A stretch of DNA of 64,000 nucleotides from Vulcanisaeta sp. AZ3 (GTDB lineage: Archaea > Thermoproteota > Thermoprotei > Thermoproteales > Thermocladiaceae). Below are positions 11,578 through 62,300 of this stretch, piece after piece (the first letter of the stretch is position 1; each line of letters starts with the position of its first letter). The notes under the pieces were generated by a model. That model was given only the letters and a program-made list of their open reading frames with translations. It was not told where the DNA came from and did not search any database. The stretch covers positions 1 through 64,000 of the forward strand of contig JZWU02000005.1 of the NCBI GenBank assembly GCA_000960865.2, given 5' to 3'. A program made the position numbers and the translations under genes.

Positions 11578-12560
11578 TCATGTAATTTTCACATGGTTAT
11601 AACTACCAAGGACCTTTAAGTAAGTGGTAACTTTATTCAACTCTCTAATAGCTTCAGTACAAATAACATCTCTTAACTGGCACTCGACTTCAAGTAGGAA
11701 ATCGTACCCCCACGGGCTCTGCCTATTGGGTTTCGAGTAAATCATTGATAAATTAAGACCTCTCTCAGCGAGGGGCCTAAGGGCATTATATAGGGCACCG
11801 GGTCTGTTGGGAATTGAGAATATGATTAGCGTTCTATCACCAACCATCGGAATGCGCTTACTGATTATTAGGAATCTCGTGTAATTAGGTCTATCTTCAA
11901 TGCCGCAAACCATGGCCTTTAAGCCATGTATCTCTGCGCCAAGCCTCGATGCTATAGCAGCCCTATTCTTAAACCCCTTTATCCTCTCTAAGGCCTCTGA
12001 GGTGGATTGTGTATATATCACTGATGCTCCGTGCCTTGTTATGAAATTCATAGCCTCGGAAATAGCATGAGGATGAGAGTATATCTCGGTTATCTCCTCC
12101 ATGGATTTCACGCAATCATTGACTATGAGACATAGATTTACCCTATACTCAACAGAGTACTTAATACCCACATCCCACTTTATCAATGAATCCATGGAAT
12201 CACCAACAACACCTGCCAAGTTATTCTCAATTGGTATTACACCAAAGCCACAATTATTATCGTAGACACACTTAACTACCTCCTCCACACTCCTCATAGG
12301 CAAATACTGCTTGCCTTCACCAAACAATCTAATTGCAACCTCATGTGAATAACTACCACTAGGTCCCAAAAACCCCACTGAATCATTAATTATATACTCA
12401 CTGAACAACCTAATTAGTATGGGTTCATGAACATTACTAATTAATTCCTTAAGCATTTCACTATCAACCAGACCACTGCTTAATACTTCCCTTAACTCAA
12501 CTAAGTTATTCTCAAGATTCTTTACCAGGTTTATTATTCTTTGAATTCCAGCTCGTTCAC
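11578..12560 (-). CDS. pheA: Prephenate dehydratase with ACT domain; promoter-proximal GTG 12560 is out of frame, first in-frame ATG is 12456
   Basis: FLGPSGSYS, PIEN, SHPHA, NYTRF and PGAL motifs. Confidence 0.88.
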
Positions 12561-12591
12561 ATTTGCCCAGTATATAGGTTATTTATAAGCA

Positions 12592-13614
12592 TTACTTAGC
12601 ACCCAATTTCCTAATTACCTCCTCTGTGAACTCTGTGGCCTTAGCATTACCACCTAGATCTGGTGTTAATTTAATTCCCTCACTCAACACCCTAATGACA
12701 GCATCCTCAACAGCTGCACCAGCCCTCACAAACCCCGAATCCCCTGTTCTTACACCCCACCACTTAAGCATCCACCCGGCACACAGTATCATGGCTGTTG
12801 GGTTAGCAATGCCCTTACCTGCTATGTCAAAGGCAGCTCCATGGACGGGTTCGAACATTGCCTTAACATCACCTATATTTGCAGATGGTGCTAATCCAAT
12901 GCTTCCAGTCACATATGCGGCTATATCGCTTAATATATCTCCATAGAGGTTTGTAGTTACTATTACATCGAAGTCCTGAGGCTTTCTAACAATATCCATG
13001 ACAGCAGCATCTATGTACATCTCATCAATAGCGATACTTGAGTAATTCTTAGCCACCTCTCTCACTGTATTTCTGAAGAGCCCATCACTCAGAGTAAGTA
13101 CGTTAGCCTTATGCACTATGGTAACCCTTCTCTTACGATTGAGAGCCAAATTCAGAGCCATCTTAGCGATCCTTTCGCTCGCTCTTCTAGTCACTAGCCT
13201 CAGAGCTATTGCTACATCATTAGTCAACATATACTCAGCCCTAATGTAAACATCCTCTGTATTCTCCCTAACAATAATTAAGTCAACACCATCCCTCACA
13301 GCCCTAACTCCAGGATAATTCCTTGCAGGTCTGATGTTTGCGTATAAATCCAAATCCCTCCTAAGCTTAACCACAACATCTCCAGCACTCTCACCAACAG
13401 GCCCCTTTAAGATTGCATCTGAAGACTCAATAATTGGCCAGTACTTATTAGGTAACGCCTCGCCATACCTCTTAACTGCCTCATCACCTGCCTCTACAAA
13501 CGTAAATTCGATATTTAATCCATACCTCACGGAGACCGCCTTTAGAACTTCGAGAGCTGATGAGACAACCTCAGGACCTACACCATCACCCTCGATTACT
13601 GCAACCTTCATCAT
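12592..13614 (-). CDS. leuB: 3-isopropylmalate/homoisocitrate dehydrogenase
   Basis: GDGVGPEV, VRENTE, HKANV, NLYGDILSD and FEPVHG motifs. Confidence 0.88.
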   Translation of the reverse strand: MMKVAVIEGDGVGPEVVSSALEVLKAVSVRYGLNIEFTFVEAGDEAVKRYGEALPNKYWPIIESSDAILKGPVGESAGDVVVKLRRDLDLYANIRPARNYPGVRAVRDGVDLIIVRENTEDVYIRAEYMLTNDVAIALRLVTRRASERIAKMALNLALNRKRRVTIVHKANVLTLSDGLFRNTVREVAKNYSSIAIDEMYIDAAVMDIVRKPQDFDVIVTTNLYGDILSDIAAYVTGSIGLAPSANIGDVKAMFEPVHGAAFDIAGKGIANPTAMILCAGWMLKWWGVRTGDSGFVRAGAAVEDAVIRVLSEGIKLTPDLGGNAKATEFTEEVIRKLGAK

Positions 13615-13700
13615 TAATTAAATAAATAGAGTACTTATTATGCATTATCCAGATATAGAGCATAAGAATACTTATAAATGACAGTGAAATTCCATTAATA

Positions 13701-14048
13701 ATGAATTTATTGAGAGGTGGTGAGGAGAGTTGGGAGAGACTCAATGACTTAGCCTTTAGGAAGTATGCGCATGGGTCGAGAGTTACGATTGCTCAATTTA
13801 AACTGCTAAGAGGTTCGTACGTTAAGCCGCATTCACATCCTCACGAACAAGTCTCCATAGTTATTCAGGGAAGGGTTAGGTTCACGGTTGGCAATGAGGA
13901 GATTGAGTTAAGACCTGGAGATGCTGTGTTAATACCGCCAAACGTGATGCATGATGCGGAGGCTCTTGAGGATTCACTTGTTGTAGATGTTTATTCCCCG
14001 ATAAGGGATGACTGGATTAGGGGTGAGGATAATTATTTACGATCTTAA
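13701..14048 (+). CDS. Cupin domain protein
   Basis: HSHPHEQ...IPPNVMH motifs. Confidence 0.9.
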   Translation: MNLLRGGEESWERLNDLAFRKYAHGSRVTIAQFKLLRGSYVKPHSHPHEQVSIVIQGRVRFTVGNEEIELRPGDAVLIPPNVMHDAEALEDSLVVDVYSPIRDDWIRGEDNYLRS

Positions 14049-14050
14049 CC

Positions 14051-15232
14051 TTAAGGTTGCTGTGGAGAATATTTATTGCTCATCAAATCCCTTATTATTT
14101 GCTTAATATCTCCCTCGGTAATCCTAAAACCCGCATCACCTAATTCCTTAATTCTCTCTAGTATTTTATTTACTAAGACCTCGTGGGGCTCAATGCCCAT
14201 AGACCTAAGTACGAATTCTACAGAATGCCTACCACTATGCTTACCAATCACTATTTTACGGTTCATGCCAACACTCTCTGGACTTATTGGCTCATAAGTA
14301 ATCGGGTTGGATAACACACCATGTACGTGTATTCCAGATTCGTGAGAGAAGGCATTGGCACCAACAATGGCCTTATTCGGCGGCACTGGTATTTTAAACA
14401 ACCTAGATACCAAATCAGAGACTTCCTTTATCTTCTCGAACTTAATTCCAACGTTATAGTTTAACAGGAATTTCACGGCAGCTGCAATCTCCTCAAGTGC
14501 CGCATTACCAGCTCTCTCCCCAACACCGTTTATTGTACCATGCACTTGATCAGCCCCAGCCTCTATAGCTGTCACGCTATTGGCAACTGCCATTCCGAAG
14601 TCATCATGACAATGAACACTCAATAAATAATCACCCTTAACATTCTCCTTGACAAAACTAACAAGCCAAGCCATCTTACTCGGCCACATAACGCCCACCG
14701 TGTCGGCAATATCCAACCTATCAGCACCTGCATTAACAACCTCCTGGAAAACCCTTACGAGGAACTGCGGATCACTCCTAGTTGCATCCTCTGCACTAAA
14801 CTCCACAATCATACCATGAGACTTTGCGTATTCTACAGCTTCTACGGCGGTACTAACCACCTTCTCCCTATTCATCTTCAACTTATACTTCATGTGTATG
14901 TCTGATGTAGCTATGAAGATGTGTACAGCTCCAACGTCAGCATCAATGACCCTATTGATATCCTCTCTTCTCGTCCTAGCCAGAGCTATGACCTCGGTAT
15001 CAGTGACCTCCCTCGCTATATCCTTAACGGCCCTAAACTCACCATCGCTTACTATTGGAAAGCCAGCCTCTATTGAGTCAACACCCAACTCTTCAAGCTT
15101 AAGGGCTATGGCCAATTTATCCTCAGACCTCAGGGCAACACCAGGAGTTTGTTCGCCATCCCTTAGTGTCGTATCTAAGAACCTAACGTACCTACCACCT
15201 ACCGAACCCTGAACTACATTTTCCTGAGCAAT
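14051..15232 (-). CDS. leuA: 2-isopropylmalate synthase, short form without C-terminal regulatory domain; frame begins at ATT 15232
   Basis: DTTLRDGEQTPG lies upstream of the ORF-track start (15115); HCHDD, GERAGN and HESGIH motifs; adjacent to ilv/leu genes. Confidence 0.88.
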   Translation of the reverse strand: MAQENVVQGSVGGRYVRFLDTTLRDGEQTPGVALRSEDKLAIALKLEELGVDSIEAGFPIVSDGEFRAVKDIAREVTDTEVIALARTRREDINRVIDADVGAVHIFIATSDIHMKYKLKMNREKVVSTAVEAVEYAKSHGMIVEFSAEDATRSDPQFLVRVFQEVVNAGADRLDIADTVGVMWPSKMAWLVSFVKENVKGDYLLSVHCHDDFGMAVANSVTAIEAGADQVHGTINGVGERAGNAALEEIAAAVKFLLNYNVGIKFEKIKEVSDLVSRLFKIPVPPNKAIVGANAFSHESGIHVHGVLSNPITYEPISPESVGMNRKIVIGKHSGRHSVEFVLRSMGIEPHEVLVNKILERIKELGDAGFRITEGDIKQIIRDLMSNKYSPQQP

Positions 15233-15373
15233 CTATCCCACCAAACCTTAACTAAAAATACTCTATTTAAGCTTTATTCTAAGAGAAATATATTAATGAG
15301 AATCACGATAATAAACAATATATTTAGTTATGATGAAGAAAAACTTAAATATTCTATAGTTGACTTCCACCTG

Positions 15374-15400
15374 ATGAGGTGCTTTATTCTTTACGTATAA
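15374..15400 (+). promoter_or_regulatory. Putative ilv leader peptide MRCFILYV*
   Basis: ATG about 30 nt after the CTTAAATA TATA box; its 8 codons include Ile, Leu and Val. Confidence 0.65.
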
Positions 15401-20373: not shown

Positions 20374-21049
20374 AACACATTATGTATATATGCCTTTTAA
20401 AGATTACACTGTATATATCGATATGGTCCTAATTAATTCAATATAATACAAATATGCGATCTAAAAAATCAATATAAGTTCTTGATATAATTGTAAGGGA
20501 TTATGTATAAGCAGCTAATATATTTTTATATTAAAATGATGGTATTATGAATAGCATTACTCCTCAGTGATGAATTACATAGAGAACGGTCGATAAACTC
20601 AGATCCCTAAAAAGGTATTTTTAACCATGCCTTGAGTAAATTATTGTAAAGTCATTAATAGTGTAACGATAGAGAGTTTGAATATAGCTACTAAATGTAC
20701 TCTGTCTGAATTTAATAAAGTGAAACTTATAGACCACGTTACTAAATGGAGTTAGAAATATGAAGAGAACAGTTAAGGCTTTCATAGAGTTTTCTAACGA
20801 AAGAACTAAGAGCTATCCATGGATATCACAATGACAAGTATCACAGGACTCTTCGATAATTTTAATTGCTACACACCTAAAATTTAATAATTATAATATT
20901 ACAAGGTAAGCAATAGAATTGGTATGGAGTATTCATAATTGATTAATAATTATTAATTTTGATATTTATGCTATGATCGTGAATATATATTTTTCTGGGA
21001 AAGGTAAATTTTAAATAGGTAGTATGCACGTGCCTATATAGGTGACTGG

Positions 21050-22176
21050 ATGGAAATGGAAACCAAGTACTAGATAGAGGCCTTTGGATTTCAAAGGTTG
21101 GGGGTTCCCTACTAACGAGAAAATCAACTCTTAGAACTATAAGCAGTGTTATTGGGAGAGATCTAAAGCCTGGCAGTAGATTAATCCTTGTGGTTTCAGC
21201 AATGAAGGGGGTAACGGACTTACTTATCAGAGCTCTAGATGAGCATAATCCTGCATTTATAGATGAAGCTGTGTCGATGTATGTTGATGAGGCGTTATAT
21301 CTTGAGTTAAAATCATATGCTAAGTTTCTGGAGTTTGTTAATGAGGAATTACGTAGGTTTGTGAATATAGATGAACCCTGGGTTAAGGATCATACTATTG
21401 TTCATGGAGAGTTATTGTCATCATTGCTTGTTGAGGGTATCTTAAATGATATAATTGGTGTTAGGGCTAAGGCGGTTTATGAACCTGGAATAGTGGTTAA
21501 GCAAGAGTGGGGTAATGCAAGTGTTATTCATGAGCTGAGTAATACCTTTGTTCGTGAAAGGTATGATGGATTGATTAGGAAGTACGATGTTGTAGTTGTA
21601 CCTGGATTCTTGGGTGTGACGTTGGATGGTAGGTATGCATCGTTGGGTAGGGGCGGCAGTGATTACACAGCTTCGTTGCTTGCTAACTATCTGAGTGCCT
21701 CAGGGCTGACGTTCTATACAGACAGTGGCGGTCTACTTAGTGGTGATCCTAAGGTTGTGAATGATCCTGTGCTCATTAGGGAGGTTTGTTATGAGGAGGC
21801 TTATGCGGCTGCGATGGTTGGCGCTAAGAAGTTCCATCCAAGGACCTTTGAACCATTACTTAATAGTAATGTTAGGATGTTAATAACAAGCCCGTGGCTT
21901 GATGTCGGTACTTATATAACTAATAAGTGTATTGACACACCTAAAATAGTTAGTCTTAGCGGTGATGGAAGGTCTCTTAAGGTTTCTGTGGTGGGTTATA
22001 ATGCAGCTAAGAGGGAAGATGTATTCAGTGAGGTTTATACTATTGCATCCTCGTACGGTATAAACAGTATTACGCATGATAACGATCACGTACTATCCAT
22101 GCCTGTGGATGATTATAAAATAGCATTAACCCTCGTTAGAGATATACATAGGTGGGTGAGAAAATGGATAAGTTGA
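21050..22176 (+). CDS. Aspartate kinase; ATG 21050 is out of frame and the kinase frame is reached by -1
   Basis: KVGGS (21094-21108) lies upstream of the first in-frame canonical start (21190); [15 protein letters not shown] and DP motifs. Confidence 0.88.
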
Positions 22177-24256: not shown

Positions 24257-25491
24257 ATGGGGATTGAAATGGAAACCAGGAATTAATAAGAAGGTCTCTA
24301 GACAAGTATGTACTTAAGTGCCCAAGGTGTGGCTATGAGGTTGAGGCAAATCCGTTCATAATGAGGTGCCCAAGGTGTGGTGAATTACTTGATGCTGAGT
24401 TAATAGCCGAAATGATTCATATTAGGTGGGATAGGCTGCACGGTAGGGGTGTTTGGAGATATGAGAGATTGCTTCCTAGATTAAATAGTGTGGTCACTAT
24501 GGGTGAAGGATCAACACCATTAATAAGACTCAAACAATTCTCTAATGCTTATGTTAAGTTTGAGGGGCTGAATCCAACGGGTTCCTTTAAGGATAGAGGA
24601 ATGACAATTGGTACATCATTAGCTTTAGCAATAGGTGCAAGAGGGATAATTGTGGCGTCTACAGGGAATACTGCAGCCTCGGCGGCAGCTTATTCAGCTA
24701 GGGCAGGCCTTGAGTGCTTGGTAGTGCTTCCTAGGGGTGGTGTGGCTAGGGGTAAGTTGGCTCAGTCTATGTTGCATAATGCACGTATATTAGAGGTTAC
24801 TGGGACCTTCGATAATGCCTTGGAGTATGTGCTGGATTCCGTGTTGAGTAATGGTGCTGTTAATGGTGTTAATTACTATCCACTTAACTCAATAAATCCA
24901 TGGAGACTAGAGGGTCAGAAAACAATTGCATATGAAATCGTTGAGGAGCTTGGTGTCCCTGACTTTGTGTTTGTTCCTGTGGGTAATGGCGGTAATATTT
25001 ACGCTATTTGGAAGGGATTTAGAGAATTGGTGGAGCTTGGTGTGATCGATCGTGTACCAAGGATGATGGGGGTGCAGGCTGAGGGGGCTAATCCAATGGT
25101 TAGGTATTGGAGAGGGCTTGGTGAGGCTAAGATTGAGAATCCGAGGACTGTAGCCTCAGCAATAAGGATTGGCAAACCAATTAATTGGTTTAGAGCCTTC
25201 AGGGCCGTTAAGTATAGTAATGGCACCTTCCTGGAGGTTAGCGATGAAGAGATATTAAATGCCCAGAGAGTACTTGGTAGGGAGGGTATAGGTGTTGAGC
25301 CGGCTAGTGCAGCATCGCTGGCAGGTTACTTAAGGGCGTTAAAAGACGGTCTTGTGGATAGGAATGATAAAGTGGTGCTAATAGCCACAGGGCATGCTCT
25401 TAAAGATCCCGATATACTAACTATGGGGAATGCGCAGTTTATGAGGGTGTCATCAATCAATGAATTAAGAACGTTAATTGCCACTAAGTAA
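24257..25491 (+). CDS. thrC: Threonine synthase; ATG 24257/24269 are out of frame and the enzyme frame is reached by -1
   Basis: NPTGSFKDRG, ASTGNT, PVGNGGN and EPASA motifs; the first CPRC of the Zn ribbon (24319-24330) precedes the first in-frame ATG. Confidence 0.9.
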
Positions 25492-25504: not shown

Positions 25505-26581
25505 CTAAACTGGGTATAGTGGTACTTGTTCAAGTGCTGTTGTTTCGGGAAATCCGAGGGCAATATTCATGGCTTGGACTGCTTGCCCTGAGGCACCCTT
25601 CATTAAGTTATCCTCGGCTGCTAACATAACTAATCTACCAAGCCTCTGGTCTATCTCAAAGCCTATGTCTATGAGGTTACTACCAATGACGTACTTAACG
25701 TCTGGATAACGTTGATTGCCAACTCTATCCTTAACAAGCCTTATGAATGGTTCATTACCATACATTGACCTAAGTGCCTTCCAGACCTCAGGTTCCGTAA
25801 CATTCCTAGCAAGCCAAGTGTGGGCAGTCGTTAGTATACCTCTCACTAAATCAACAGCATGTGGTGTAAACGCCACCCTAACCTCATGATTAATTAATCG
25901 ACTAAGCTCCTGCTCTATCTCGGCTGTATGCCTGTGATGAACAACATCATAAGGTCTAATTACATATGTACGGAATGGGTGTAGGTCAAGCCTTGGTGCA
26001 TGAGCACCAGCGCCTGAACTCGCTATCTTGGCATCAATAACAATCCTATTTGCCTCTATAAGGCCTGCCTTAATTACAGGTGCTAGAGATAATATTGCAG
26101 CCGTGGCCATGCAGCCTGGTACAGCTATTAACCTAGTACCTCTTAACTCCTCCCTATGTAGCTCAGGTAAGCCATAGACCGCCTTATCAAGTAGATCTGG
26201 GTATGGATGAGGTTTTTCCCAACCGTACCACTCCACGTAGGCCCTGGGGTCCTTAAGTCTAAAGTCTGCGGATAAATCCACAATAGTTAAGCCCGTCTCG
26301 TAAAGCTTTGGTACCCACTCAATACTTTGCCCATGGGGTAATGCTAGGAATACTACATCTACATCATGCTTAAGTACAGAATCTATTGTAGAGTCTGTGA
26401 AGGTAAGTTCAGTTCTACCCCTTAGATTGGGGTGGACGCGAAAGACATACTCACCTTTAAATTCTCTTGAGGTTACGCAAACAATCTCAATGCCTGAATG
26501 ATTAAGTAATAACCTTAATAACTCACCACCCGTAACTCCACTAGCACCGACAATGCATACCCTATACCTACCACTCTCCAT
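25505..26581 (-). CDS. lysY: LysW-aminoadipyl/glutamyl-phosphate reductase (LysY/ArgC)
   Basis: GASGVTG, DLSADFRL, PGCMATA, HRHTAEI and DNLMKGASGQA motifs. Confidence 0.92.
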   Translation of the reverse strand: MESGRYRVCIVGASGVTGGELLRLLLNHSGIEIVCVTSREFKGEYVFRVHPNLRGRTELTFTDSTIDSVLKHDVDVVFLALPHGQSIEWVPKLYETGLTIVDLSADFRLKDPRAYVEWYGWEKPHPYPDLLDKAVYGLPELHREELRGTRLIAVPGCMATAAILSLAPVIKAGLIEANRIVIDAKIASSGAGAHAPRLDLHPFRTYVIRPYDVVHHRHTAEIEQELSRLINHEVRVAFTPHAVDLVRGILTTAHTWLARNVTEPEVWKALRSMYGNEPFIRLVKDRVGNQRYPDVKYVIGSNLIDIGFEIDQRLGRLVMLAAEDNLMKGASGQAVQAMNIALGFPETTALEQVPLYPV

Positions 26582-27311
26582 TGTACCACCTCACTATAGC
26601 GCTCACTACTTTGTCTAGGTTCTCTGCGGTTAATTCTATCCTTGGATCAAGGCCTAAGATCACAGCTTCACTATCATAAACGCCAATAGCATACGTGCAG
26701 AGAACACACCCAATATCTCTACTAAGTCTTAATAACATTGAATCAAGACCGCTGCAGTTAATGCAGTTGGTCCCAATTACTTGTGCATTAAACATACTAT
26801 CTGGTGCTTTCATTAATAAGTTAATCTTAGCCAGGGGATTTCCCATATACATCCTATGTTCAGCTATAGACTTCGAACCTTCCCATGTGGTGACGATACC
26901 ATCAAGTTCCATCGCCATTGAGGGAGTTGCCATATAGGTCCTGCCGATACTCTTAACGACATTGGCAACAACGTTAGGGTTTAGAGCAATCATAAACTCA
27001 GGTACAGGATAACCTAATCTACTTAACTCCCTAAACAACAGTACTCTATTCATAGCCATCACATACACATTTTGAGCGTTGAGTGTTTTGTCGAAGAGAC
27101 CTGAAGCTATTAAAGCCTCAAAGACATTATCAAGGAGGAGCACTGCCCTCCCTTGAGTGATTCTCAACTCTTCATCCCTAGCATTAATAATGCCAACCCT
27201 AAACCCAGAGTTAACTAACTTACTATGAAGTTGCTGCTCTAATGGACCGTACTTACTAAGCATGAGCATGAGATCTTGCTTAATTGAAAGCCCCGCTTCA
27301 ATAATGATCAC
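26568..27311 (-). CDS. Degenerate LysX/RimK-like ATP-grasp paralog (probable pseudoenzyme)
   Basis: Aligns by eye with LysX (GYPVP, HRMYMGNP) but lacks the KP, GSWG, RTN and EVN motifs. Confidence 0.6.
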   Translation of the reverse strand: MIIIEAGLSIKQDLMLMLSKYGPLEQQLHSKLVNSGFRVGIINARDEELRITQGRAVLLLDNVFEALIASGLFDKTLNAQNVYVMAMNRVLLFRELSRLGYPVPEFMIALNPNVVANVVKSIGRTYMATPSMAMELDGIVTTWEGSKSIAEHRMYMGNPLAKINLLMKAPDSMFNAQVIGTNCINCSGLDSMLLRLSRDIGCVLCTYAIGVYDSEAVILGLDPRIELTAENLDKVVSAIVRWYNGEW

Positions 27312-27438
27312 CTCTCATTGACTACAAGATATGCCAAATTAATAAATATTTTCCTTAATGATACTAGGGGTAATACATTAACTATGTTCATTTAGAGAAA
27401 TACTTATATAGCCTATGTAAGCTGGAGTCTTTTCAGTG

Positions 27439-28307
27439 ATGGAACGGGAACCACGATTGGGCAAAGTTCAGGAGATAATAATGAAGTGACCATACTGTAT
27501 GATTTCGTGAGAACTGAGGAGAAGTTACTTGTTAATGAGTTCAGAAAGCTCGGTGTCAACCTGAGGTTGATAAATATTGATAAGCTATCACTAAGACTTG
27601 ATAGTGAGGTCAGCCTTGGAGTATCATTAGTTAGGCCAGTAAGCCATTTAAAGGCTAGTCTCGTGGCTAAGGTGCTTAATGCACACGGAGTTATTACAAT
27701 AAACAATGGTCTCGCCATAGAAAACGCTTGGAATAAGGCGGTAGCATTATCCATATTAGCAAAGTCCGGAATACCCATTGTGCCAACAAAGCTTCTATTC
27801 TCTGTGGAGTTTAACGATGATGGAATTCAGTATCCAGTTATTGTTAAGCCTGTCCATGGATCCTGGGGCAGATTAGTAAGCCTCGTGGGTGATATGGATG
27901 AGCTAAGGCTCGTGCTTAAACACAATGCTCTTGATAATGCTAATCCTAGAATTTACATGCTACAACCATTCATTGGTAATGGTAAAGATTATAGGGTCTT
28001 TGTTATTGGTGATGAGGTAGTGGCTTCAATGACTAGGTTACCTAGCGATGGCGATTGGCGCAGTAATGTAGCTAGAGGTGGTATTCCACGTGCCGTTAAA
28101 CTTAGCGATGATGCTTACGAATATGCAGTTAAGGCGGTTAAGGTTCTTGGGCTCGATTACGCTGGCGTTGATATGCTTCAAGGTCCAAATGGTTATTTGA
28201 TTAATGAGGTTAATGCAATACCTGAATTTAAGGGCTTAATGATAGCATCTGGCGTTAACATAGCACGTAAAATAGCTAAGTACGTAATAAACCTAGTCAG
28301 AAGGTGA
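27439..28307 (+). CDS. argX: Glutamate--LysW ligase ArgX-like; leader ATG 27439 is out of frame, in-frame GTG at 27486
   Basis: KPVHGSWGR, WRSNVARGG and NEVNAIPEF motifs; lacks the LysX-type IYR/NT signature. Confidence 0.75.
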
Positions 28308-29486: not shown

Positions 29487-30842
29487 ACTAATTATATCAT
29501 GAACTATACCCATTAATTCCTCGTCACCCAATGGGTTCTTTCTTAATTCGTGGTCATAAAGCGACTTAACCTTATCATACACTACCTCCACTAATTCCTC
29601 ATTTACATTGAAACCATGAATCTTAAGCCAATGCTTAATTGATGACTTTCCAGAGTATGGCCCAATAACCATCTTAGGTTCGCGATCCACGAGACTTGGG
29701 TCCATTGATAAATACGTTATTGGATTCCTAAGTTGGGCATCAATATGTATGCCTGCCGCTGTGGTAAAGGCATTTTCACCAACGATGGGCTGATATGTGG
29801 GTACCTCATATCCCATTGACTTAAAGGTCTCTGCAATACTCCTAATAACCCTGGGATTCATACCATCAAACGAACCCTTAATTCGCGAATACCAAAGGAC
29901 AAGTGCCTCAATAGGCACATTCCCACTCCTCTCACCAATGCCCAACATAGTACCATTATTTATGGAGGCCCCATATAACCACGCAGCCACTGCATTAGCT
30001 ATTGCCATGTAATAATCGCCATGCCCATGAAACTCTATATTCGTACTCCGTATGTTAAGTACTCTCCTCAATACGTAGATTAATTTTGGTATACCATACG
30101 GCAGTGACACAAATGGATATGGAACACCTACACCCGTAGTATCGGGCAACTTAATAACTAAATCAACGCCATACCTCTCACTCAACCTTAGCAGCTTCTC
30201 TAAGAATGGTATTACGAAACCAACCACATCTGACCTGGTGATGTCCTCAAGACTACATCTAAGCCTTATCCCACTCCTTAAAGCGTACTCCGCGGCCTCT
30301 AAGTATTTAGCTATCACTCTATCTCTCGTGGAATTGAACTTATACTTAATGTGTATATCCGATATCGACATGAGCATTACCATCTCATCAAGTCCAGCCT
30401 CCTTAACTAACTTAACATCCTCAACCCTAGCTCTACCCCAACCAATAACCTGAGGCCATTCAAGGTCTAACTCCCTAACAGCCCTAACAAGCCTTCTATC
30501 TCTCTCTGTATATAGGAAGAACTCACTCTTAATTATTTTACCACTACCATTATCCAGCTCGGAAAGTAACCTAAAGAGTTTAATGGCATCCTCCACTGAG
30601 TAGTACGTATAGAAGGCTTGCTGACCGTCCCTAAAGGTAGTATCCGTTATATAGAGATTCTCAGGAACCTCAGGCTCTACGTAGATACCATCAAATAACA
30701 ACCTAGGCGGTAAAGGCCATTGATTTATTATCTCCTTAAATACAGAATCATCATTCACATAGTCAATGCCCTCCTTTCTAAGCAGTTTAATTAATTCCTC
30801 GGGTTCACTTCTATTACCAGGTGCTTCAATAGAGACCCCCAA
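29475..30842 (-). CDS. DRE-TIM acyl-CoA condensing enzyme (Re-citrate-synthase-like sequence), probably the homocitrate synthase
   Basis: DTTFRDGQQA, HGH, GERSGN and AGIH motifs; located in the Lys cluster. Confidence 0.7.
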   Translation of the reverse strand: MGVSIEAPGNRSEPEELIKLLRKEGIDYVNDDSVFKEIINQWPLPPRLLFDGIYVEPEVPENLYITDTTFRDGQQAFYTYYSVEDAIKLFRLLSELDNGSGKIIKSEFFLYTERDRRLVRAVRELDLEWPQVIGWGRARVEDVKLVKEAGLDEMVMLMSISDIHIKYKFNSTRDRVIAKYLEAAEYALRSGIRLRCSLEDITRSDVVGFVIPFLEKLLRLSERYGVDLVIKLPDTTGVGVPYPFVSLPYGIPKLIYVLRRVLNIRSTNIEFHGHGDYYMAIANAVAAWLYGASINNGTMLGIGERSGNVPIEALVLWYSRIKGSFDGMNPRVIRSIAETFKSMGYEVPTYQPIVGENAFTTAAGIHIDAQLRNPITYLSMDPSLVDREPKMVIGPYSGKSSIKHWLKIHGFNVNEELVEVVYDKVKSLYDHELRKNPLGDEELMGIVHDIISSLT

Positions 30843-31981: not shown

Positions 31982-32836
31982 CTAACCTCTCCTCATTATA
32001 TCTAGCACCATTTCCGCAATTAATCTGGCAATATTAACACCAGTGACCCTCTGTACATTCTTAAATTCAGGCACAGTATTTACCTCAAGCACCTTATAAC
32101 CACCGTCAACTTCAACAACATCAATACCTGCATAATAAGCCCCTATCGCCTTAACAGCCCTTACACTTATATCCTCGAGTTCAGGGTCTATCCTCGCAGG
32201 CTCCGCCTTTCCACCCCTAGCCGTATTTGTCCTCCAATCATCACCCACCACATACCTATATATTGCAGCAACAGCCTCATCACCAACCACAGTAACCCTA
32301 ATATCTCTACCAGGTTTCCTAATGAACTCCTGAACTAGATAAATACCATATTGAGGATTCTCCATGAGATCTCTATGTCTAGCGAGTAAATTCATATCCT
32401 CCACGCTACCCACGAGGCTTACTAATCTGCCCCAAGATCCATGGACAGGCTTAACAATAGCCGGAATACCAACATTATCCAGAGCCTTTACGGCAGCTCC
32501 TCTCGACATAGTAATTACTGTTCTCGGTACCGGAATGCCAAACCTATCTAATAGGGCTATTGATACTGCCTTGTTATTACCGACGAGTATTGATATTGAG
32601 GGATTTATGGATCTACCACCAAGCGCCTCATACATTTGAGCAATTATTTGTGTTCTATTCTGACTAACAGTTCTTATGAAAGCAAGTCCTGTATTGCCAT
32701 TGGGTATTGTGAAGACTAGCTCCTCAGCATTGACAAGCCTATAGTTAATGCCTAAATTATTGAACTCCCTAATGAGGAGCTTCTCGTCAAGTCTTATAGC
32801 ATCATAGAAGAAATTAACGACTTCAATCAGAACCAC
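31982..32836 (-). CDS. lysX: Alpha-aminoadipate--LysW ligase
   Basis: GSWGR, AIYR, WRTNTARGG and EVNTVPEF motifs; directly after lysW; start is GTG 32836 or ATT 32827. Confidence 0.88.
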   Translation of the reverse strand: MVLIEVVNFFYDAIRLDEKLLIREFNNLGINYRLVNAEELVFTIPNGNTGLAFIRTVSQNRTQIIAQMYEALGGRSINPSISILVGNNKAVSIALLDRFGIPVPRTVITMSRGAAVKALDNVGIPAIVKPVHGSWGRLVSLVGSVEDMNLLARHRDLMENPQYGIYLVQEFIRKPGRDIRVTVVGDEAVAAIYRYVVGDDWRTNTARGGKAEPARIDPELEDISVRAVKAIGAYYAGIDVVEVDGGYKVLEVNTVPEFKNVQRVTGVNIARLIAEMVLDIMRRG

Positions 32837-35292: not shown

Positions 35293-36373
35293 ATGATTCG
35301 GATTAAGAAGACGCTACTTAGTACTTCAGGATGGAAGTATATATCGTGGTTATGCCTTTGGTGCTGATGGTAATGCCGTTGGGGAGGTCGTCTTCACAAC
35401 AGCTAACGTTGGCTATCCTGAATCACTCACAGATCCGTCGTATAAGGGGCAAATACTCATATTCACAATGCCGCTAATCGGCAATTACGGCGTATCGCCA
35501 GACCAATGGGAGAGCAGCTCAATTCAAGTTAGTGGTATAGTTGTATTTGATGTAACATCACCAAGCCATTATACGTCAATAATGAGTCTTGATGAGTGGT
35601 TAAGGAGGGATGGTATACCTGGTGTCTTTAGGGTTGATACGAGGGCTATAACTATCAAGTTAAGGGAGCTGGGTGTTATGATGGGCGCTATAGCTGATAA
35701 TCCGGCTGAGGGGTTTAGGTTGATTAGAAGTGCTCCTCGTTATGATGATTTTGATTTCGTAAAGCTCGTGTCACCAAGTGACATAATTAATTATGATAAT
35801 AATGATGGACCATGTATAGGTATTGTGGATTGTGGCGTAAAAATGGGTATTGTGAGAAACTTACTAGCAAGAGGCGTTAGGGTTGTTAGATATCCTTGTC
35901 ATATGTGGTCCAGGGTTATTAACGAATGCGACGGTGTCGTCTTAAGCAACGGTCCAGGCAACCCAAATCTCTTGAACTTTCTCATAGATGCCGTGACAGA
36001 CATAATTATGGATAGAAAGCCAACCCTAGGTATATGCCTAGGTCACCAAGTAATAGCCCTTGGTGTGGGGGCGAGACTTTATAAGATGAAGTATGGACAC
36101 AGAGCGATAAACAAGCCTGTGCTAGACTTAATTAGGGGAAGAGTCTACGTGACAACTCACAACCATGGTTATGCTGTAGATCCGCAATCAATAAAGGGTA
36201 CGGGCTTTAAGATATGGGCAGTACAACCCGATGATAAGACTGTAGAGGGTTTGATACATGAGAAGTTACCAATAATAACTACGCAATTCCATCCAGAGGC
36301 TAGGCCTGGGCCCAATGATACTACTTGGATCTTTGATGAGTTCATAAAGTTAGTGATGAGGTATGGACATTAG
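35293..36373 (+). CDS. carA: Carbamoyl-phosphate synthase small subunit; ATG 35293 is out of frame and the enzyme frame is reached by +1
   Basis: YLVLQDG, GEVVFTT and GYPESLTDPSYKGQI all lie upstream of the first in-frame ATG (35468); SNGPGNP, GICLGHQ and QFHPE motifs. Confidence 0.9.
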
Positions 36374-43258: not shown

Positions 43259-44472
43259 TTAGTTCTTATGCCTAGCCCTAAATGCTGTTAATGAGTGCAT
43301 TGTGTGCATTTTAATGAAGCCTCTAGCTTCCTCCTCGCTTGGGTACCAACCACCTATGTAATCTACTAACTCCTTACTGTAGCTTGCATATGGGCTTTCC
43401 CTACCTACTATTGTTAATCCACCAAGCACCCTAATCCTCACTTTACCGCTAATCCACTTATTCATTGACCTAATAAGCTGCTCTAACTCTTCACGCAATG
43501 GCTCATGCCAAAGCCCTTGATAAACAAGATCTGTCCAGGTCTGATCCACAATCTTCTTAAACCTATACTCCAATGGTGTATAGATTAACTTTTCAAGATC
43601 CTTGTGAACCTCTATTAGCGTTAAGGCAGCAGGCGCTTCATAGACCTCCCTGGACTTAAAGCCCACAACTCTATTCTCCACATGGTCAATCCTACCAAAA
43701 CCGTGCATACCAACGATTCTATTTAACGTGGTTATTATGCTCACAAGATCCATCCTCTCGCCGTTAACAGCTATGGGTAAGCCCTCCTTGAACTCAATCT
43801 CTAGATTTAGTGGTTCATGTACCTTCTCTAGGGGGATCGTCCATTTGAATGCATCTTCAGGTACTTCCACAGATGGATCGTCTATCTCATGGCCCTCAAT
43901 GCTCCTCGACCATAGATTATCATCTATACTGAACCTGCTGTGTATGTTGGGTATTGGTATGTTGTTCCTTCTGGCATACTCAATCTCACTGGCCCTATCC
44001 ATATTCCAGATCTTGGCTGGTTCTATGATCATGAGATCAGGTGCTAATGCCATGAGGGCTTCATTAAATCTAACCTGGTCATTACCCTTAGACGTGGAGC
44101 CGTGGGCCACTGCATCGCAACCCTCCCTTTTAGCAACTTCAACAATTCTCTCAGCGATTAATGGTCTAGCTAATGCTGTACCTAATGGATACTTATCCTC
44201 GTAGAGAGCATTTGCCATTATCGCCGTGGCTACTGGGCCGTTGGCAAAGTCTTGCCTCGCATCTATAGTAATGTGCTTCGTAGCACCAGCTTTGTAAGCT
44301 CTTCTCTCAATGTCCTCAAAATCATCATCCTGACCAACATTGACCGTGACTGTTATAACCTCTGCATTAAACTTACTCCTTAACCAATGAATTGCAACTG
44401 TGGTGTCTAAACCTCCTGAGAATGCTAAGACAATTTTACCTGGCTTTTTGTGCTCCGGTTTAAATTATTCAC
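43259..44472 (-). CDS. argG: Argininosuccinate synthase; GTG 44472 is out of frame and the enzyme frame is reached by -1
   Basis: KIVLAFSGGLDT PP-loop lies upstream of the first in-frame start (44218); HGSTSKGNDQVRF and KSREVYEAP motifs. Confidence 0.92.
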
Positions 44473-54484: not shown

Positions 54485-54709
54485 CAGCTGTACGCCTAAC
54501 CACGGCCCACAACCGGGTGGGTTCGGCAACGACCCACTTGAGGAAACTCCCCCAAACTCCGTGGGTCCCTGCGGGGTAACCCGCCGACCGAGAGGTCGTC
54601 AGGGACTGCGGCCCAAATAAGGATCTGTGATCTCCACGGGTGAGATCCGGGTGGGGCCTTAGAGGAATAGTACAGAAGGGGGGTTATGCCGTGGTTAGGC
54701 GTACAGCTG
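54485..54709 (+). ncRNA. rnpB: RNase P RNA, short type-T form
   Basis: 22-bp P1 CAGCTGTACGCCTAACCACGGC with its complement; GAGGAAACTCCCCC (CR-I) and ACAGAAGGGGGGTTA (CR-V); only 225 nt. Confidence 0.92.
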
Positions 54710-58835: not shown

Positions 58836-59276
58836 ATGGATATTACAGTGGATAAAATAATAAAGAGAGAATCCCCCCTTACAATTAACGAAAACGCCAA
58901 AGCAAGAGAGGCCATAGGAGTAATGGCTAGGGAAAATGTGGGTCTACTCGTTATAGTAGATAATGCAGGTAAACCAGTTGGCGTGATATCTGAGAGAGAC
59001 GTGGTAAAGGCCTTAGCTAGAGGTATAGACCTAAATGCTAAGGTTTCCGAAATTGGTACGATGGGTAAAATAATATCAGTTAGCCCCCATGATAGTATAT
59101 ACAAGGCTGCAATTTTAATGAACAACAACAATGTTAGGCATTTAGTGGTTATGGATGGTGATAAGTTACGTGGCGTTATCTCAATAAGGGATATAATAAA
59201 CGAAGAGAGAGTTGTATCCAGACTTGCAGAGGCAGCAGGGGCCAAGCCTGAAACCGAAATACCTGGTGGTGATTAA
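58836..59276 (+). CDS. CBS-domain pair protein
   Basis: VGVISERD, VRHLVV and GVISIRD motifs. Confidence 0.9.
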   Translation: MDITVDKIIKRESPLTINENAKAREAIGVMARENVGLLVIVDNAGKPVGVISERDVVKALARGIDLNAKVSEIGTMGKIISVSPHDSIYKAAILMNNNNVRHLVVMDGDKLRGVISIRDIINEERVVSRLAEAAGAKPETEIPGGD

Positions 59277-59332
59277 AGCTTAAAATTATCTCTAGTAATA
59301 ATTAAAAACGATGGTTTTTCTCAGGAGATGAA

Positions 59333-62300
59333 ATGAGGAATTTTAAGTCAAGAGTCGAGGAACTATATGGCGATTTCCTTAAGGAGATTAGGGAAATTGA
59401 ACATAAATGGCAAAACGAATGGCATAAGAACGGAATATTCAATGCAGAACCAAGGCCCGATAAGCCTAAGTACTTCATAACCGTGCCCTATCCATACGTC
59501 TCAGGAGCTCCTCACATAGGTCATGCAAGGACATTCACTATTGGCGATATCATAGCCAGGTATAAAAGAGCTAGAGGGTTCAATGTTTTATTCCCCATAG
59601 CGTGGCACATAACTGGGACACCAATACAATCCGTGGCCGATAGAATCATGAAGGGTGACCCAGATGATATTAAATTATATTCCTGGTATGTGAGCCTCTA
59701 TGTAAATGACCCAGAAGGAGTTAGGAACACATTGAACACATTCACTAACCCCTGGAACATAGCCCAATTCTTCGCCTCAGTCTACATTAGAGACTTCATG
59801 TCCATGGGATATTCCATGGATTTCAGGAGACAATTTACAACAGGCGATCCAGACTATAATGCCTTCATTATCTGGCAGTACTATAGATTGAAGGATGCGG
59901 GTTATATAACTCAAGGTAGCCATGTAGTCCTCTACTCACCAAATGAAGGACAAGCAGTTGGTGAACATGACATTAAGGGTGGAGATGAACTAAACATTGA
60001 TGTATTAGAATTCAACCTAATTAAGTTTAGGCTCGAGGGTTCAAATGAATATTTAGTGGCAGCCACATTGAGACCGGAGACTATTTACGGCATAACTAAC
60101 ATATGGGTAAGACCTGATTTAGAGTATGTAATTGCGGAAGTAGACAGCGAGAAGTGGATTATATCAAAACCAGCAATGTGGAAGCTTAGCTACCAAGGTT
60201 ATGAGATTAAAGCTGTCGGTAGTATACGTGGGGAGGAATTAATTGGTAAATACGCAATGACGCCTTTAATTAATAGGAGAATCCCTATACTACCTGCCTC
60301 ATTCATCGACGAGAGCACAGGAACCGGCATTGTTTATAGTGTACCTGCCCACGCACCTTACGACTACGTGGCGCTCATGGACCTAAAGAAGAATGAAGCT
60401 CTGCTTGTTAAGTATGGTATTAAGGATGTCGTGAATACCATAGAACCAATATCAATAATTAAATTACCCAATTACGGTAAGTACCCAGCCAAAGATGTTG
60501 TGGAGAGGCTTGGTGTTAAGGATCAAAGTAATAGGGAGGCGCTCGATGAGGCGACTAGGGTAATTTACAGAGAGGAATTCTATAATGGCGTTATGAGAGA
60601 GAACACGTTATTCCCGGGAGTTAGTGTTGATGATGCCAGAAAGAAAACAATTGAGGCGCTTAAAGATCAGGGCGCTTGGGGTAGAATGTATGAACTAGAG
60701 CCTAGAGATGTATTCACAAGGAGCGGTAATCCAGTCATAGCAGCGGTAATTAAGGATCAGTGGTTTCTCAACTATGGAAATCCCGAGTGGAAAGAGAAAG
60801 CATTCAAATGTCTAAATTCAATGAAGATAGTGCCGGAGAAGTATAGAAAGAATTTCGAGGATGTATTTAATTGGTTATCCATGAGGCCCTGCGCTAGGAA
60901 GAGAGGTTTAGGTACTAGGCTTCCCTGGGATCCCGACTGGATAATTGAATCGTTAAGCGACTCAACGATATACATGGCCTACTACACAATAGCCCATAAG
61001 ATAAAGGGAAGTGATTTGCATAAGAAACTTGGTGATCTTGCAAGACGTGTAATAAATAGTAGGGGATCTGATGAGGGTGCTCTAAGTGCCATAATGGCTT
61101 TCTTTAATTACGTATTCCTAGGCGAGGGAGATCCGGGTAAGGTGGCTAATGTGTTTGGTGTTGATAGGAGATTTATTGAGGAGTTAAGGAATGAATTTAA
61201 TTACTGGTATCCTGTAGATGAGAGACATAGTGGCCCTGACCTAATAGGTAGCCACCTGAGTTTCTTCGTATTCCACCATGCAGCCATTTTCCCAGAGAGG
61301 TATTGGCCTAGAGCGATAACATTGAATGAATACGTAATTAGGGAGGGTATGAAGATGAGCAGATCCTTGGGTAACGTACTACCCATGCCCTACGTACCGA
61401 CACACTATAGTGCCGACTTAACTAGACTATACATAGCATCCGCAGCTGACTTAGACACAACTCTTGACTGGAGGGAAGATGATGTTGTGAGCACGACCAG
61501 TAGACTTGTAAAGTTCTGGAACATTGTTAATGACATAATTAGGGTTGAGAAAACGCAGACAAGCCCAGATATTAACTTCCTCTCCCTGGCGACTCGCTGG
61601 ATAGTGTCCAGAGTGAATAGGGCAATACGTGATGCAACCGTGGATATAGAGAACGAGAACATAAGGGGTTACGCCCTAAAGGCCTTCTTCGACTTACTTG
61701 CATCTGTGGAGAAGTATCTAGAACTCACAAATGCAGTTGGTGTGAATAAGGATGAGGTTAGGTGGGCTCTGTGGTATGTGCTTGAACGTTGGATTAAGCT
61801 GCTTCAACCGATGATCCCACACATTACTGAGGAGGCTTGGCATAGAGTAGGTAATGCATCATTCGTGTCCCTAGAGCCTTGGCCTGAGTATGATGAGGGG
61901 CTAATAAATGATGAGCTAGATATAGCCCTGGATATAATAGAAAGGACAATAGACGATATACAGGAAATATTAAAGGTCACGAAGATAACGCCAAAGACCA
62001 TACATATATATGTCGGTCCACCCAATGATTACTACGAAATAATCAATGAGGCAGCTAAGATGGTAAGTGAGGGTAAGACTATGGGTGAAATTATAAGGGC
62101 TATAATAGCTAAGCCTGAGTATAGACGCATAGCCGATAAGGTTGCTAACCTCATCTCACGGTACATAGATGGAACAATACCCAGGAAGGTTGTTCGCAGA
62201 GATATGGAGCTCATGACATTTAAGGAGCTTACAGCATACATCAAATATAGGGTAGGTGTTGACATCGTAATACAGGATGCCCTAAACCCAACTTACGACC

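Follow-up and report, generated by a model that had tools for sequence, protein, structure and literature searches.

Cognate codons behind slip sites in out-of-frame leader ORFs point to frameshift-based amino-acid sensing in Vulcanisaeta and its relatives

The stretch of DNA analysed here, called the window, is the 64,000-nucleotide segment C5:1-64000 of Vulcanisaeta sp. AZ3, whose draft genome (labelled G000) comprises 1.51 Mb in 55 contigs and is 89.85% complete. The window has a GC content of 38-44% and is dense in amino-acid biosynthesis genes. Many of these genes have no canonical start codon ahead of their conserved N-terminus, and a short open reading frame (ORF) in another frame lies over or just before their 5' end. 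Within that short frame, a codon for the product of the pathway (the sensor codon) directly follows a site on which the P-site tRNA could re-pair one base off (the slip site). This architecture is conserved, the sensor codon matches the pathway, and the gene frame evolves as coding sequence. From these features we consider it quite likely that the leaders would serve as amino-acid sensors through hungry-codon frameshifting on leaderless or short-leader mRNAs, by a -1 shift in general and by a +1 shift in carA and leuS of this genus.

In the proposed mechanism, the mRNA would be leaderless or would carry a leader of roughly 10 nt with a short Shine-Dalgarno (SD)-like motif, and the ribosome would initiate at an ATG, GTG or TTG out of the enzyme frame. 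One to 12 codons on, the P-site tRNA would be placed on a codon that permits re-pairing one base back (G_GGG, G_GGA, G_GAA, C_CAA, A_AAC, or the initiator tRNA on A_UUG) or, in carA and leuS of this genus, one base forward (WUU_C), and the A site would then present a codon for the end product of the pathway. If the cognate aminoacyl-tRNA were plentiful, this codon would be read, the short frame kept and translation terminated early, giving no enzyme. If it were scarce, the A site would stay empty, the P-site tRNA would slip, a non-cognate codon would enter and the enzyme frame would be translated. In the A_UUG class the P-site tRNA would be the initiator, with one mismatch on UUG or on AUU; as it mismatches once either way, the start frame would be set by the speed of the first A-site decoding.

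The 5' regions of the window were read in three frames, and start-less N-termini were judged by the alignment of NCBIfam profiles relative to the upstream stop in the gene frame. The initial annotation of the window had listed 12 cases, and every one was present where it had been placed. Its statement that leuA, aspartokinase, thrC, carA and argG contain no in-frame ATG, GTG or TTG before their N-terminal motifs also held when the gene frame was read from the upstream stop: DTTLRDGEQ (leuA), KVGGS (aspartokinase), the first zinc-ribbon CxxC (thrC), YLVLQDG (carA) and SGGLDT (argG) are all reached without a canonical start. Profile position 1-5 aligns 5-16 residues from the upstream stop in these five genes. 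Starting at the first canonical codon would cost leuA profile positions 1-24 and carA about 55 positions, aspartokinase would lose its KxGG, thrC its first CxxC and argG its SGGLDT, and catalytic or nucleotide-binding motifs would thus be removed. An in-frame canonical start is present in the window for argX, lysX, the homocitrate synthase, the lysY-operon gene, leuS and ilvB.

The leaders are 2-25 codons long and overlap the enzyme ORF. That of carA spans 24 codons (ATG ATT CGG ... TGA; 35293..35367, plus strand), with the +1 site AUU_C followed by the Arg sensor CGG (35299-35301). The carA gene lies in the +1 frame (35297..36373, plus strand), where a stop TGA overlaps the leader ATG and the first canonical ATG (35468) comes 57 codons in; ahead of YLVLQDG, the window's carA gene frame has no near-cognate start either. 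The leuA leader reads A_TTG CTC AGG AAA ATG TAG (15214..15232, minus strand), its TTG (15231-15229) overlapping a gene-frame ATT (15232-15230) and preceding the Leu sensor CTC (15228-15226). In leuA itself (2-isopropylmalate synthase; 14051..15232, minus strand), profile position 1 falls at residue 16, and the first canonical in-frame start, TTG 15115, at residue 40, past DTTLRDGEQ. The argG leader GTG AAT AAT TTA AAC CGG ... TAG (44425..44472, minus strand) combines A_AAC with the Arg sensor CGG (44457-44455), and argG follows in the -1 frame (43259..44464, minus strand), with a gene-frame TAA directly before TTT AAA and a first canonical ATG (44218) past SGGLDT. The site given for this gene in the initial annotation, T-TTA-AAC-CGG, is conserved in its A_AAC_CGG portion and not in the T_TTA portion.

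The aspartokinase leader ATG GAA ATG GAA ACC AAG TAC TAG (21050..21073, plus strand) carries the Thr site that had been noted, G_GAA_ACC (sensor 21062-21064), and beside it a second sensor, G_GAA_AUG for Met (21056-21058). The enzyme is encoded in the -1 frame (21046..22176, plus strand), its first canonical start being GTG 21190, past KVGGS. In thrC, the leader ATG GAA ACC AGG AAT TAA (24269..24286, plus strand; further ATG in the same frame at 24257) places the Thr sensor ACC (24275-24277) behind G_GAA, and the enzyme occupies the -1 frame (24268..25491, plus strand), with a first canonical ATG at 24361, past the first zinc-ribbon CxxC. The two leaders have the 13-nt string GAAATGGAAACCA in common (21047..21064; 24264..24278), which the short frame translates as Met-Glu-Thr and the enzyme frame as Asn-Gly-Asn. 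For pheA, which encodes prephenate dehydratase with an ACT domain, the short ORF GTG AAC GAG CTG GAA TTC AAA GAA TAA (12534..12560, minus strand) has the slip site G_GAA at 12549-12546 and the Phe sensor TTC at 12545-12543. The gene lies in the -1 frame (11578..12582, minus strand), open from 12582, and the PDT profile starts at residue 67-68. A start-less helical N-terminal extension, conserved in relatives and entered from the short ORF with G_GAA_TTC, precedes the canonical ATG at 12456, which itself lies ahead of the dehydratase domain.

The remaining leaders belong to genes that have a canonical start in the window. In argX, the leader GTG ATG GAA CGG GAA CCA CGA ... ATG AAG TGA (27436..27489, plus strand) holds the sensors G_GAA_CGG (27445-27447) and G_GAA_CCA (27451-27453), and its stop overlaps the argX GTG at 27486. 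The homocitrate-synthase-like gene begins with A_TTG AAG (30824..30830, minus strand; ATT 30830-30828, TTG 30829-30827, Lys sensor AAG 30826-30824). Its in-frame TTG at 30842 is unconserved: by eye, in the regions inspected, canonical starts are missing from the sequence just before the ATT in G004, G007 and G010, whose first in-frame starts lie 14-21 codons past the sensor. The lysX leader A_TTG AAG (32821..32827, minus strand; TTG 32826-32824, AAG 32823-32821) stands about 6 nt past GGTGG, and a conserved in-frame GTG (32836-32834) lies inside this motif. Ahead of the lysY operon (an anonymous gene at 26568..27311 and lysY/argC at 25505..26581, with an in-frame GTG at 27311), A_TTG AAG CGG (27293..27302, minus strand) presents the Lys sensor AAG (27298-27296) followed by CGG (27295-27293). 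In leuS, the leader ATG GTT TTT CTC AGG AGA TGA (59311..59331, plus strand) has the +1 site UUU_C and the Leu sensor CTC (59320-59322), and the gene's own ATG (59333) is in the +1 frame.

Orthologous loci were compared among 30 relatives from eight genera and three families, many of them complete genomes (complete single-contig sequences: G004, G008, G011, G013, G019 and G023-G028), and a class-wide sample was added later. Conservation was counted with a programmatic test for a re-pairing site followed by a cognate codon, at the proper frame offset from the enzyme ORF. The proposal in the initial annotation that relatives would keep an out-of-frame start with a cognate codon was borne out across genera and in three families. 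Slip site and cognate codon were found in all analysable loci of leuA (19/19, with 16/16 further loci) and thrC (21/21), in 23/24 loci of carA and 21/24 of argG, and in 12 of the 15 aspartokinase loci, the three misses being error-prone drafts with one C fewer. ATTGAAR was present at all 14 homocitrate synthase loci (one with AAA, still Lys) and A_TTG AAG at 11/11 analysable same-genus lysX loci. For argX, G_GAA_CGR was found in 5/5 analysable loci (eight loci were missed by the anchor), and in three relatives, two of them complete genomes, no canonical start lies ahead of the conserved ILYD stretch of this gene. The pheA site reads G_GAA_UUY or C_CAA_UUY in 14 of the 15 analysable loci of the window's family, the single miss being a draft assembly. 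The leuS arrangement was seen in 12/12 analysable same-genus loci; other genera had none except one f3 locus (G020: TTT CTA, with the right frame relation). Sensor changes were synonymous and kept the amino acid (ACA/ACG, AAG/AAA, CTC/CTT, TTT/TTC).

The drafts G002, G003, G005 and G009 carry split genes (e.g. L004/L005, L028/L030 and L340/L341), and in G002, G003 and G009 the lengths of G or C runs differ from those of near-identical relatives. These drafts thus look error-prone and unfit for judging reading frames. Two of the drafts behind the aspartokinase and pheA misses, as well as the near-identical G003, show homopolymer-length differences. The three genomes with an aspartokinase GTG in frame are likewise drafts with split genes, two of them (G002 and G009) with homopolymer-length differences. 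A GTG-started aspartokinase frame with a +1 shift at CCC_U was also considered; it fits several relatives and was rejected, as the window has CCA_A.

The slip site differs among lineages (G_GGG, G_GGA, G_GAA, C_CAA, A_AAC, A_UUG, WUU_C), and the codon behind it always matches the pathway, as a decoding-based sensor predicts. This genus has G_GAA in aspartokinase, thrC, pheA, argX, transketolase and MetRS, A_AAC in argG, the +1 site WUU_C in carA and leuS, and A_UUG after a GGTGR motif in leuA, homocitrate synthase, lysX and the lysY operon. In leuA, ATTGCTC or ATTGCTT occurs in 14/14 analysable loci of the family, G_GGG_CUC in 20/20 of the sister family, and G039, from a different family, reads ATG GAA TTG without a canonical start. 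The carA site is WUU_CGG in 13/13 same-genus loci (CUU_CGG in place of AUU_CGG in one genome), G_GGA_CGA in 2/2 of the sister genus and G_GGG_CGA in 8/8 of the sister family; that of argG is A_AAC_CGG in 8/8 same-genus loci and G_GGA_CGA, G_GAA_CGA or G_GGG_CGA in 13 more, the sister genus using G_GGA_CGA for carA and argG alike. The leuS site is UUU/AUU_CUY, and two other genera have C_CAA_UUY for pheA. The sister family uses G_GGG throughout, in TTCGGGGCTCG (leuA), TTTCGGGGACR (thrC), RGGGGCGA (carA) and TCGGGGCGA (argG), the ATG of its argG leader sitting within the end of a preceding lysW-like gene. Enzymes with several products carry several sensors: Val/Leu/Ile for ilvB in the sister-family genome G024, Tyr/Trp/Phe for transketolase in both families, Met/Thr for aspartokinase and Ile/Thr for thrC of G024.

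By eye, enzyme-frame stops lie 0-2 codons ahead of the slip site, for example in TAA GGG GCG (carA of four sister-family genomes), TAA TTT AAA (argG), TGA over ATG (carA), TAG ATT (leuA) and TAA CCA GGA ATT (pheA). On the other side the short frame closes within a few codons, as in ATG GGG TAT TGA and ATG TCG GGG TGG TAG of G024. These two sets of stops confine the frame change to the position of the slip site and sensor.

To survey genes irrespective of their function, the complete genome G024 (sister family, 1,826,402 bp) was scanned for an ATG with a TATA-like element 18-40 nt upstream that opens a short ORF containing GGG preceded by G, with the -1 frame free of stops over 80 or more codons. 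Fifty-one rows resulted, compared with 12 in the reversed genome, and the -1 ORFs were named by hidden Markov model (HMM) search. The sensors were TGG for a TrpB-like protein and TrpD, ATT for citramalate synthase, CTC for LeuA, AAA for homocitrate synthase and LysX, GTA, CTC and ATT at three successive sites for acetolactate synthase, CGA for CarA, ATT and ACA for ThrC, TAT, TGG and TTT for transketolase, TAT for AroD-chorismate mutase, TTT for prephenate dehydratase (leader ATG CAG GGG TTT) and TGT for a weak cysteine-synthase relative. An IleRS with ATG GGG ATT is ambiguous, a gene-frame ATG being present 7 nt upstream behind a second TATA-like element. In G024, no canonical start lies ahead of the essential N-terminal motifs in cimA, leuA, homocitrate synthase, lysX, ilvB, carA, thrC, pheA or argG.

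Among the HMM-identified hits, 19/19 sites were cognate (log10 P -21.2 under genome codon usage), and none of 200,000 permutations of the sensors reached 19 cognate sites, the highest having 13. This count takes in argG, which has no TATA box of its own and was seen in the ortholog comparison, and leaves out the TGT and TrpRS sites. A much looser scan of G024, which accepted every out-of-frame ATG suitably spaced from a TATA element, was too noisy; the TrpRS (ATG GGG TGG, sensor TGG) alone was taken from it. The TrpRS and IleRS genes of G024 are at 433116 (L164) and 1498442 (L217), respectively. Rows ahead of a periplasmic-binding protein, a PurB-like lyase and CoaBC were set aside as probable chance matches.

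In G000, a scan for G_GAA gave 87 rows, compared with 29 in the control, and added transketolase and MetRS. A third scan gave 41 rows, compared with 11 in its reversed-genome control. The transketolase leader of G000 encodes MEYRNFQW followed by a stop, and a re-pairing site precedes each of its Tyr, Phe and Trp codons; MetRS (C33:8602, L326) has G_GAA_AUG. The sensors of G024 and of these two genes in the window's genome agree with the expectation of the initial annotation that other pathways and aminoacyl-tRNA synthetases would carry their own codons, and the pattern exceeded chance by reversed-genome controls, permutation and codon-usage probability. The peptide MEVTILIII on contig 1 of G000 lies inside a HerA-like gene and was rejected as a chance match. 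A short ORF encoding MVDKLEH, with G_GAA_CAC (His), was observed ahead of an MFS metabolite/H+ symporter (G000 C6:17678, plus strand, L329); it may mark a histidine-controlled transporter or be due to chance.

These counts also bear on the reading that nothing regulatory is present, and that the pattern stems from assembly indels, decaying genes or constitutive recoding together with a chance resemblance to cognate codons. Such concerns arise from the draft state of the window's genome and from the split genes and homopolymer-length differences of the four drafts named above. The same architecture is nevertheless kept in complete single-contig genomes and across genera, which rules out sequencing error and pseudogenes as its source, and the long genes of the window are intact. 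Neither the fully cognate set in G024 nor the excess over reversed genomes in all three scans fits chance, and we regard this reading as scarcely credible. For the leuA/homocitrate-synthase region of G024, contigs from RNA run X1 contain no indels or other differing letters where they cover the genome; the slip sites lie outside this cover, the contig for leuA starting 15 nt past the ATG and the other ending 24 nt short, and such contigs cannot show transcript ends.

In their distance from the TATA box, the short-ORF starts resemble ordinary first start codons. For long ORFs of G000, first starts peak 22-26 nt past a TATA hexamer, and the leader starts of ilvB (ATG, 23 nt), carA (ATG, 24 nt) and pheA (GTG, 22 nt) are within this peak; the argX ATG is 28-29 nt past its TATA, which puts the GTG 3 nt upstream at 25-26 nt. 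The hexamer set or coordinates missed argG, leuS and the lysY-operon unit; counted by eye, argG starts about 22 nt past TTATTAA and leuS about 25 nt past TTAAAA. Aspartokinase, thrC, leuA and homocitrate synthase start about 33 nt past the TATA hexamer and have, by eye, a GGTGR- or GGGG-like motif 4-6 nt upstream. In G024 the peak is at 19-22 nt, and 14 of 15 leader ATGs are found at 19-23 nt.

The start-less stretch varies in the manner of coding sequence, beginning at the sensor codon. Pooled over five genes in the better same-genus genomes, the interval from this codon to the first family motif has 1.47 extra alleles per column at third positions of the enzyme frame, compared with 0.83 and 0.72 at positions 1 and 2. 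Past ATT CGG in carA, changes are synonymous in the enzyme frame (GGA/GGC/GGT; TTA/TTG/CTA) and non-synonymous in the short frame. The Arg sensors are the rarest Arg codons, CGG accounting for 1% of them in G000, or some 0.6 in every 1000 codons overall, and CGA for 3% in G024. Rare as it is, CGG nonetheless stands behind the slip site in carA, argG and argX, and behind the Lys sensor in the lysY-operon leader. One tRNA gene each was listed for the anticodons CCG (G000) and UCG (G024) by ARAGORN; as its lists are incomplete for these genomes, tRNA copy number was not used. Given the codon usage of G000, cognate codons at all 12 sites of the window would arise with a probability of about 1e-13, a post hoc figure since the sites had been chosen in the initial annotation.

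The place where coding-type evolution begins is relevant to a second reading, in which the short ORFs are sensing leader peptides as well, and the enzyme frame is entered by termination-reinitiation at stop-start overlaps (ATGA/GTGA/TTGA, GTAG/GTAA/ATAA) or at a non-AUG start (AUU), with stalling as the modulator. In same-genus leuA the stop of the short ORF overlaps a gene-frame GTA or ATA, and the sister genus has ATG or GTG there. By eye, thrC has an ATGA overlap in about six same-genus genomes and TTGA in one; ATGA is found in sister-genus carA and TTGA in aroD of G024, and the UUG of leuA, homocitrate synthase, lysX and the lysY operon shares bases with a gene-frame AUU. The lack of avoidance of G_GGG in ORFs, described below, also speaks for this reading. 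The short-ORF stops of the window, though, overlap only the non-canonical GTAG, ATAA, TTAG or CTAG, and cimA, leuA, ilvB, pheA, thrC and carA of G024 have no canonical start near the short-ORF stop. The short ORF of sister-family thrC ends within the zinc-ribbon CxxC in all seven loci, and the window's carA leader runs 24 codons, well past the conserved N-terminus. Reinitiation would truncate conserved sequence in both and cannot explain them, and carA has no near-cognate start to fall back on. As a general answer, near-cognate in-frame starts were rejected: ATT fits leuA and argG, ATA thrC and CTG aspartokinase, none fits carA, and the cognate codons would be left unexplained.

Coding-type evolution from the sensor codon is likewise not accounted for by restart at the short-ORF stop, nor is the constant presence of a re-pairing site immediately before the cognate codon. 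Stalling on the sensor would moreover leave the restart codon covered by the ribosome, so that starvation would repress the gene, the wrong sign. We therefore consider reinitiation or non-AUG starts unlikely as the explanation of the whole set, although termination-reinitiation may operate where stop-start overlaps exist, or alongside frameshifting.

A third reading takes the cognate codon for an undecoded nucleic-acid specifier, recognised by uncharged tRNA in a T-box-like manner, by a synthetase or by a DNA- or RNA-binding regulator, with the frame relations being incidental. The nucleotide-level conservation of leader cores (GATGGAAATGGAAACC, TTCGGGGCTCG and ATTGAAG) and the string common to aspartokinase and thrC agree with it. 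On the other hand, the sensor is always in frame with the promoter-positioned start and directly 3' of a re-pairing site, although the sequence of that site varies by lineage, and sensors that vary between loci do so synonymously. At gathering thresholds, the Rfam matches in the window are limited to RNase P (type T) and two tRNAs, with no T-box or riboswitch family among them. The missing start codons would also remain unexplained, and a specifier of this kind seems to us very improbable.

Frameshifting at the sensor, the reading we prefer, has several points against it. The initial annotation had proposed starvation-dependent slippage into the enzyme frame, and the comparative data support this interpretation; the slippage itself, and its dependence on tRNA charging, we infer from sequence. 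The sites in the window and in relatives were picked by eye before counting, and the relatives are mutually non-independent. By inspection under general pairing rules, re-pairing is perfect at G_GGG and good at G_GGA and A_AAC; it extends to two of three positions or depends on G.U pairs at G_GAA, C_CAA, WUU_C and, with the initiator tRNA, A_UUG (G_GAA would re-pair imperfectly to GGA, C_CAA to CCA and AUU to UUC). Long ORFs of G024 show no avoidance of G_GGG, which they contain 2535 times where 1557 would be expected (ratio 1.63); the codon pairs NNG-GGG and NNC-CCC are over-represented in them (ratios 1.63 and 1.60). The site is thus not strongly slippery alone, and its 5'-end position or another factor must be invoked; we infer that weak frame-keeping near the mRNA 5' end is the reason why these sites shift and internal ones do not. 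Most leaders have a single cognate codon, unlike the runs of bacterial leader peptides. In the window, lysX, leuS, argX and homocitrate synthase have a canonical route beside the shift. Stop-start overlaps (ATGA, GTGA or TTGA) offer another, by eye, in thrC of about seven same-genus genomes, in leuA and carA of the sister genus, and in aroD of G024. With Trp and Cys sensors, G followed by UGG or UGU creates an in-frame GUG, itself a canonical alternative. The TrpB-like gene of G000 (C10:42923, plus strand, L328) has no canonical in-frame start for 105 codons, and no plausible slip site was found before TGG in its 11-codon short ORF, VVTIWVSINIE followed by a stop.

The ilvB leader of this genus is also at odds with frameshifting. 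The leader reported in the initial annotation, ATG AGG TGC TTT ATT CTT TAC GTA TAA (15374..15400, plus strand; MRCFILYV), is indeed present and ends about 75 nt upstream of ilvB (15475), and its Ile, Leu and Val codons are kept in 9/9 same-genus loci with retained synteny. A stop divides its frame from ilvB, and no shifted frame consistently reaches the gene in this genus. It can therefore not act by frameshifting into ilvB, and needs another mechanism. Its predicted fold was not significant (z +0.80; 155 of 200 shuffles folded at least as well), as computed with 37 C parameters for a thermophile.

The anonymous protein at the head of the lysY/argC operon (26568..27311, minus strand) has about 220-250 aa. 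Its homologue in G024 (L156:16647-17291; 27% identity over 216 aa, E 2e-23) is divergent from thrC and gave no NCBIfam or Pfam match. The leaders of both copies carry Lys and Arg sensors, and that of G024 adds Pro (G_GGG_CCA, G_GGG_AAA and G_GGG_CGA). The protein is probably an unrecognised component of LysW-dependent Lys/Arg synthesis. Elsewhere in the window, a truncated RNase P RNA of type T was detected at 54497..54697 (plus strand; Rfam RF02357, 116.8 bits).

We lean clearly towards the view that a protein-free, ribosome-read regulon, or 'ribulon', exists in Thermoproteales, and also in a neighbouring family, in at least one genome; it would be switched gene by gene through cognate hungry-codon frameshifting. 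Such a ribulon would, with fair probability, cover the biosynthesis of Leu, Ile, Val, Thr, Met, Lys, Arg, Phe, Tyr, Trp and probably Cys, together with several aminoacyl-tRNA synthetases, and it seems reasonably probable that the sensor codon is a swappable module within it, of which multi-product enzymes carry several. For most archaea, little has to our knowledge been described of the means by which amino-acid synthesis is adjusted to supply; attenuators and T-boxes are not known to occur in them, and the regulators described are scattered transcription factors. If the ribulon is real, a whole lineage uses the ribosome as sensor and frameshifting as output, as an archaeal counterpart of attenuation and T-boxes, and hungry-codon frameshifting would for the first time be seen in natural use across a regulon. 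Known cases of programmed frameshifting in archaea would rise from one in a 2021 review to dozens per genome, and the ribulon would account for gene callers truncating or misplacing the starts of these enzymes in Thermoproteales. The rule of slip site plus sensor codon would predict the controlling amino acid, including Lys/Arg control of 26568..27311, and reading-frame maintenance would appear intrinsically loose at the 5' end of leaderless mRNAs.

Several known systems resemble the proposed one in part. In bacterial leader-peptide attenuation (trpL, hisL, leuL, thrL, ilvL, pheL), a ribosome on a short leader ORF also reads cognate codons and reports tRNA charging, and the leaders for branched-chain and Thr/Ile pathways are multivalent. 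Attenuation acts through alternative hairpins (a terminator or a masked ribosome-binding site) and runs of cognate codons, whereas here the frame would change, mostly at one cognate codon. A separate, cognate-rich leader ORF is seen here only for ilvB of this genus; the other leaders leave no room for terminator/antiterminator hairpins. The leaderless polycysteine short ORFs of mycobacteria (the 'Cys ribulon') act, according to the accessible part of the report, by unmasking a ribosome-binding site (10.1101/834739). They would share with the present leaders a leaderless short ORF and a regulon-level coordination without a protein regulator; most genes here have neither a start codon of their own nor an SD downstream of the leader that could be unmasked.

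Sensing by frameshift is itself familiar. The prfB gene (RF2) has a sensor frameshift. The antizyme frameshift senses polyamines (PMC8211752). By sequence, the five window genes and nine G024 genes without a canonical start belong to this type: a short zero frame ends soon past a conserved shift site, and the main product requires the shift, the rate of which would report the supply of the pathway's deliverable, as in prfB and antizyme. Those are single genes with one ligand each, whereas at least 12 transcription units would be involved here, with interchangeable sensor codons and mostly -1 shifts at the very 5' end. The Ty1 +1 frameshift, at CUU_AGG_C, depends on a rare Arg codon with a scarce tRNA and sets a fixed Gag:Pol ratio. 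It is echoed by AUU_CGG (CUU_CGG in one genome) in carA and UUU/AUU_CUY in leuS, where a P-site NUU codon would re-pair on UUC and the A-site codon is rare in each (CGG being 1% of Arg codons); in place of a fixed ratio, the shift would switch a cellular biosynthetic gene in response to one particular amino acid.

Slippage of a single P-site tRNA while the A site is vacant is well established and does not depend on a downstream stimulator (PMC8211752), and hungry-codon frameshifting has been described for E. coli constructs, dnaX and HIV in the sections available of two reviews (PMC8211752, PMC5009743). There, as proposed here, a lone P-site tRNA re-pairs one base off while the A-site codon awaits a scarce aminoacyl-tRNA. 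In those cases it is an error regime or a side route, whereas here it would be designed and the only route to the main product of many genes. Unlike in the known cases, the hungry codon would be matched to the end product of the very gene it controls, and the site would stand 1-12 codons into a leaderless mRNA. Up to 2021, a single -1 programmed frameshift had been reported from archaea, that of fucA1 in Saccharolobus solfataricus (PMC8211752). It likewise yields a full-length enzyme through a -1 shift at a slippery site on an archaeal ribosome, and differs in its internal heptamer A_AAA_AAT, flanking rare codons and putative hairpin, being a single gene with no link to amino-acid supply. In its accessible part, a 2016 review of frameshifting treats the hungry-codon type as a starvation phenomenon whose natural use is unclear and makes no mention of Pyrobaculum, Thermoproteus or Crenarchaeota (PMC5009743). 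In the GeneTack survey, predicted frame transitions were densest in Crenarchaeota (146.8 per Mb), and the available main text names none of these genes (PMC3711429). In full-text searches of the literature, with subscription-only papers outside their scope, no description of cognate-codon frameshift control of archaeal amino-acid genes came up. Set against these systems, the proposed one would combine amino-acid sensing on a leader ORF with sensor frameshifting.

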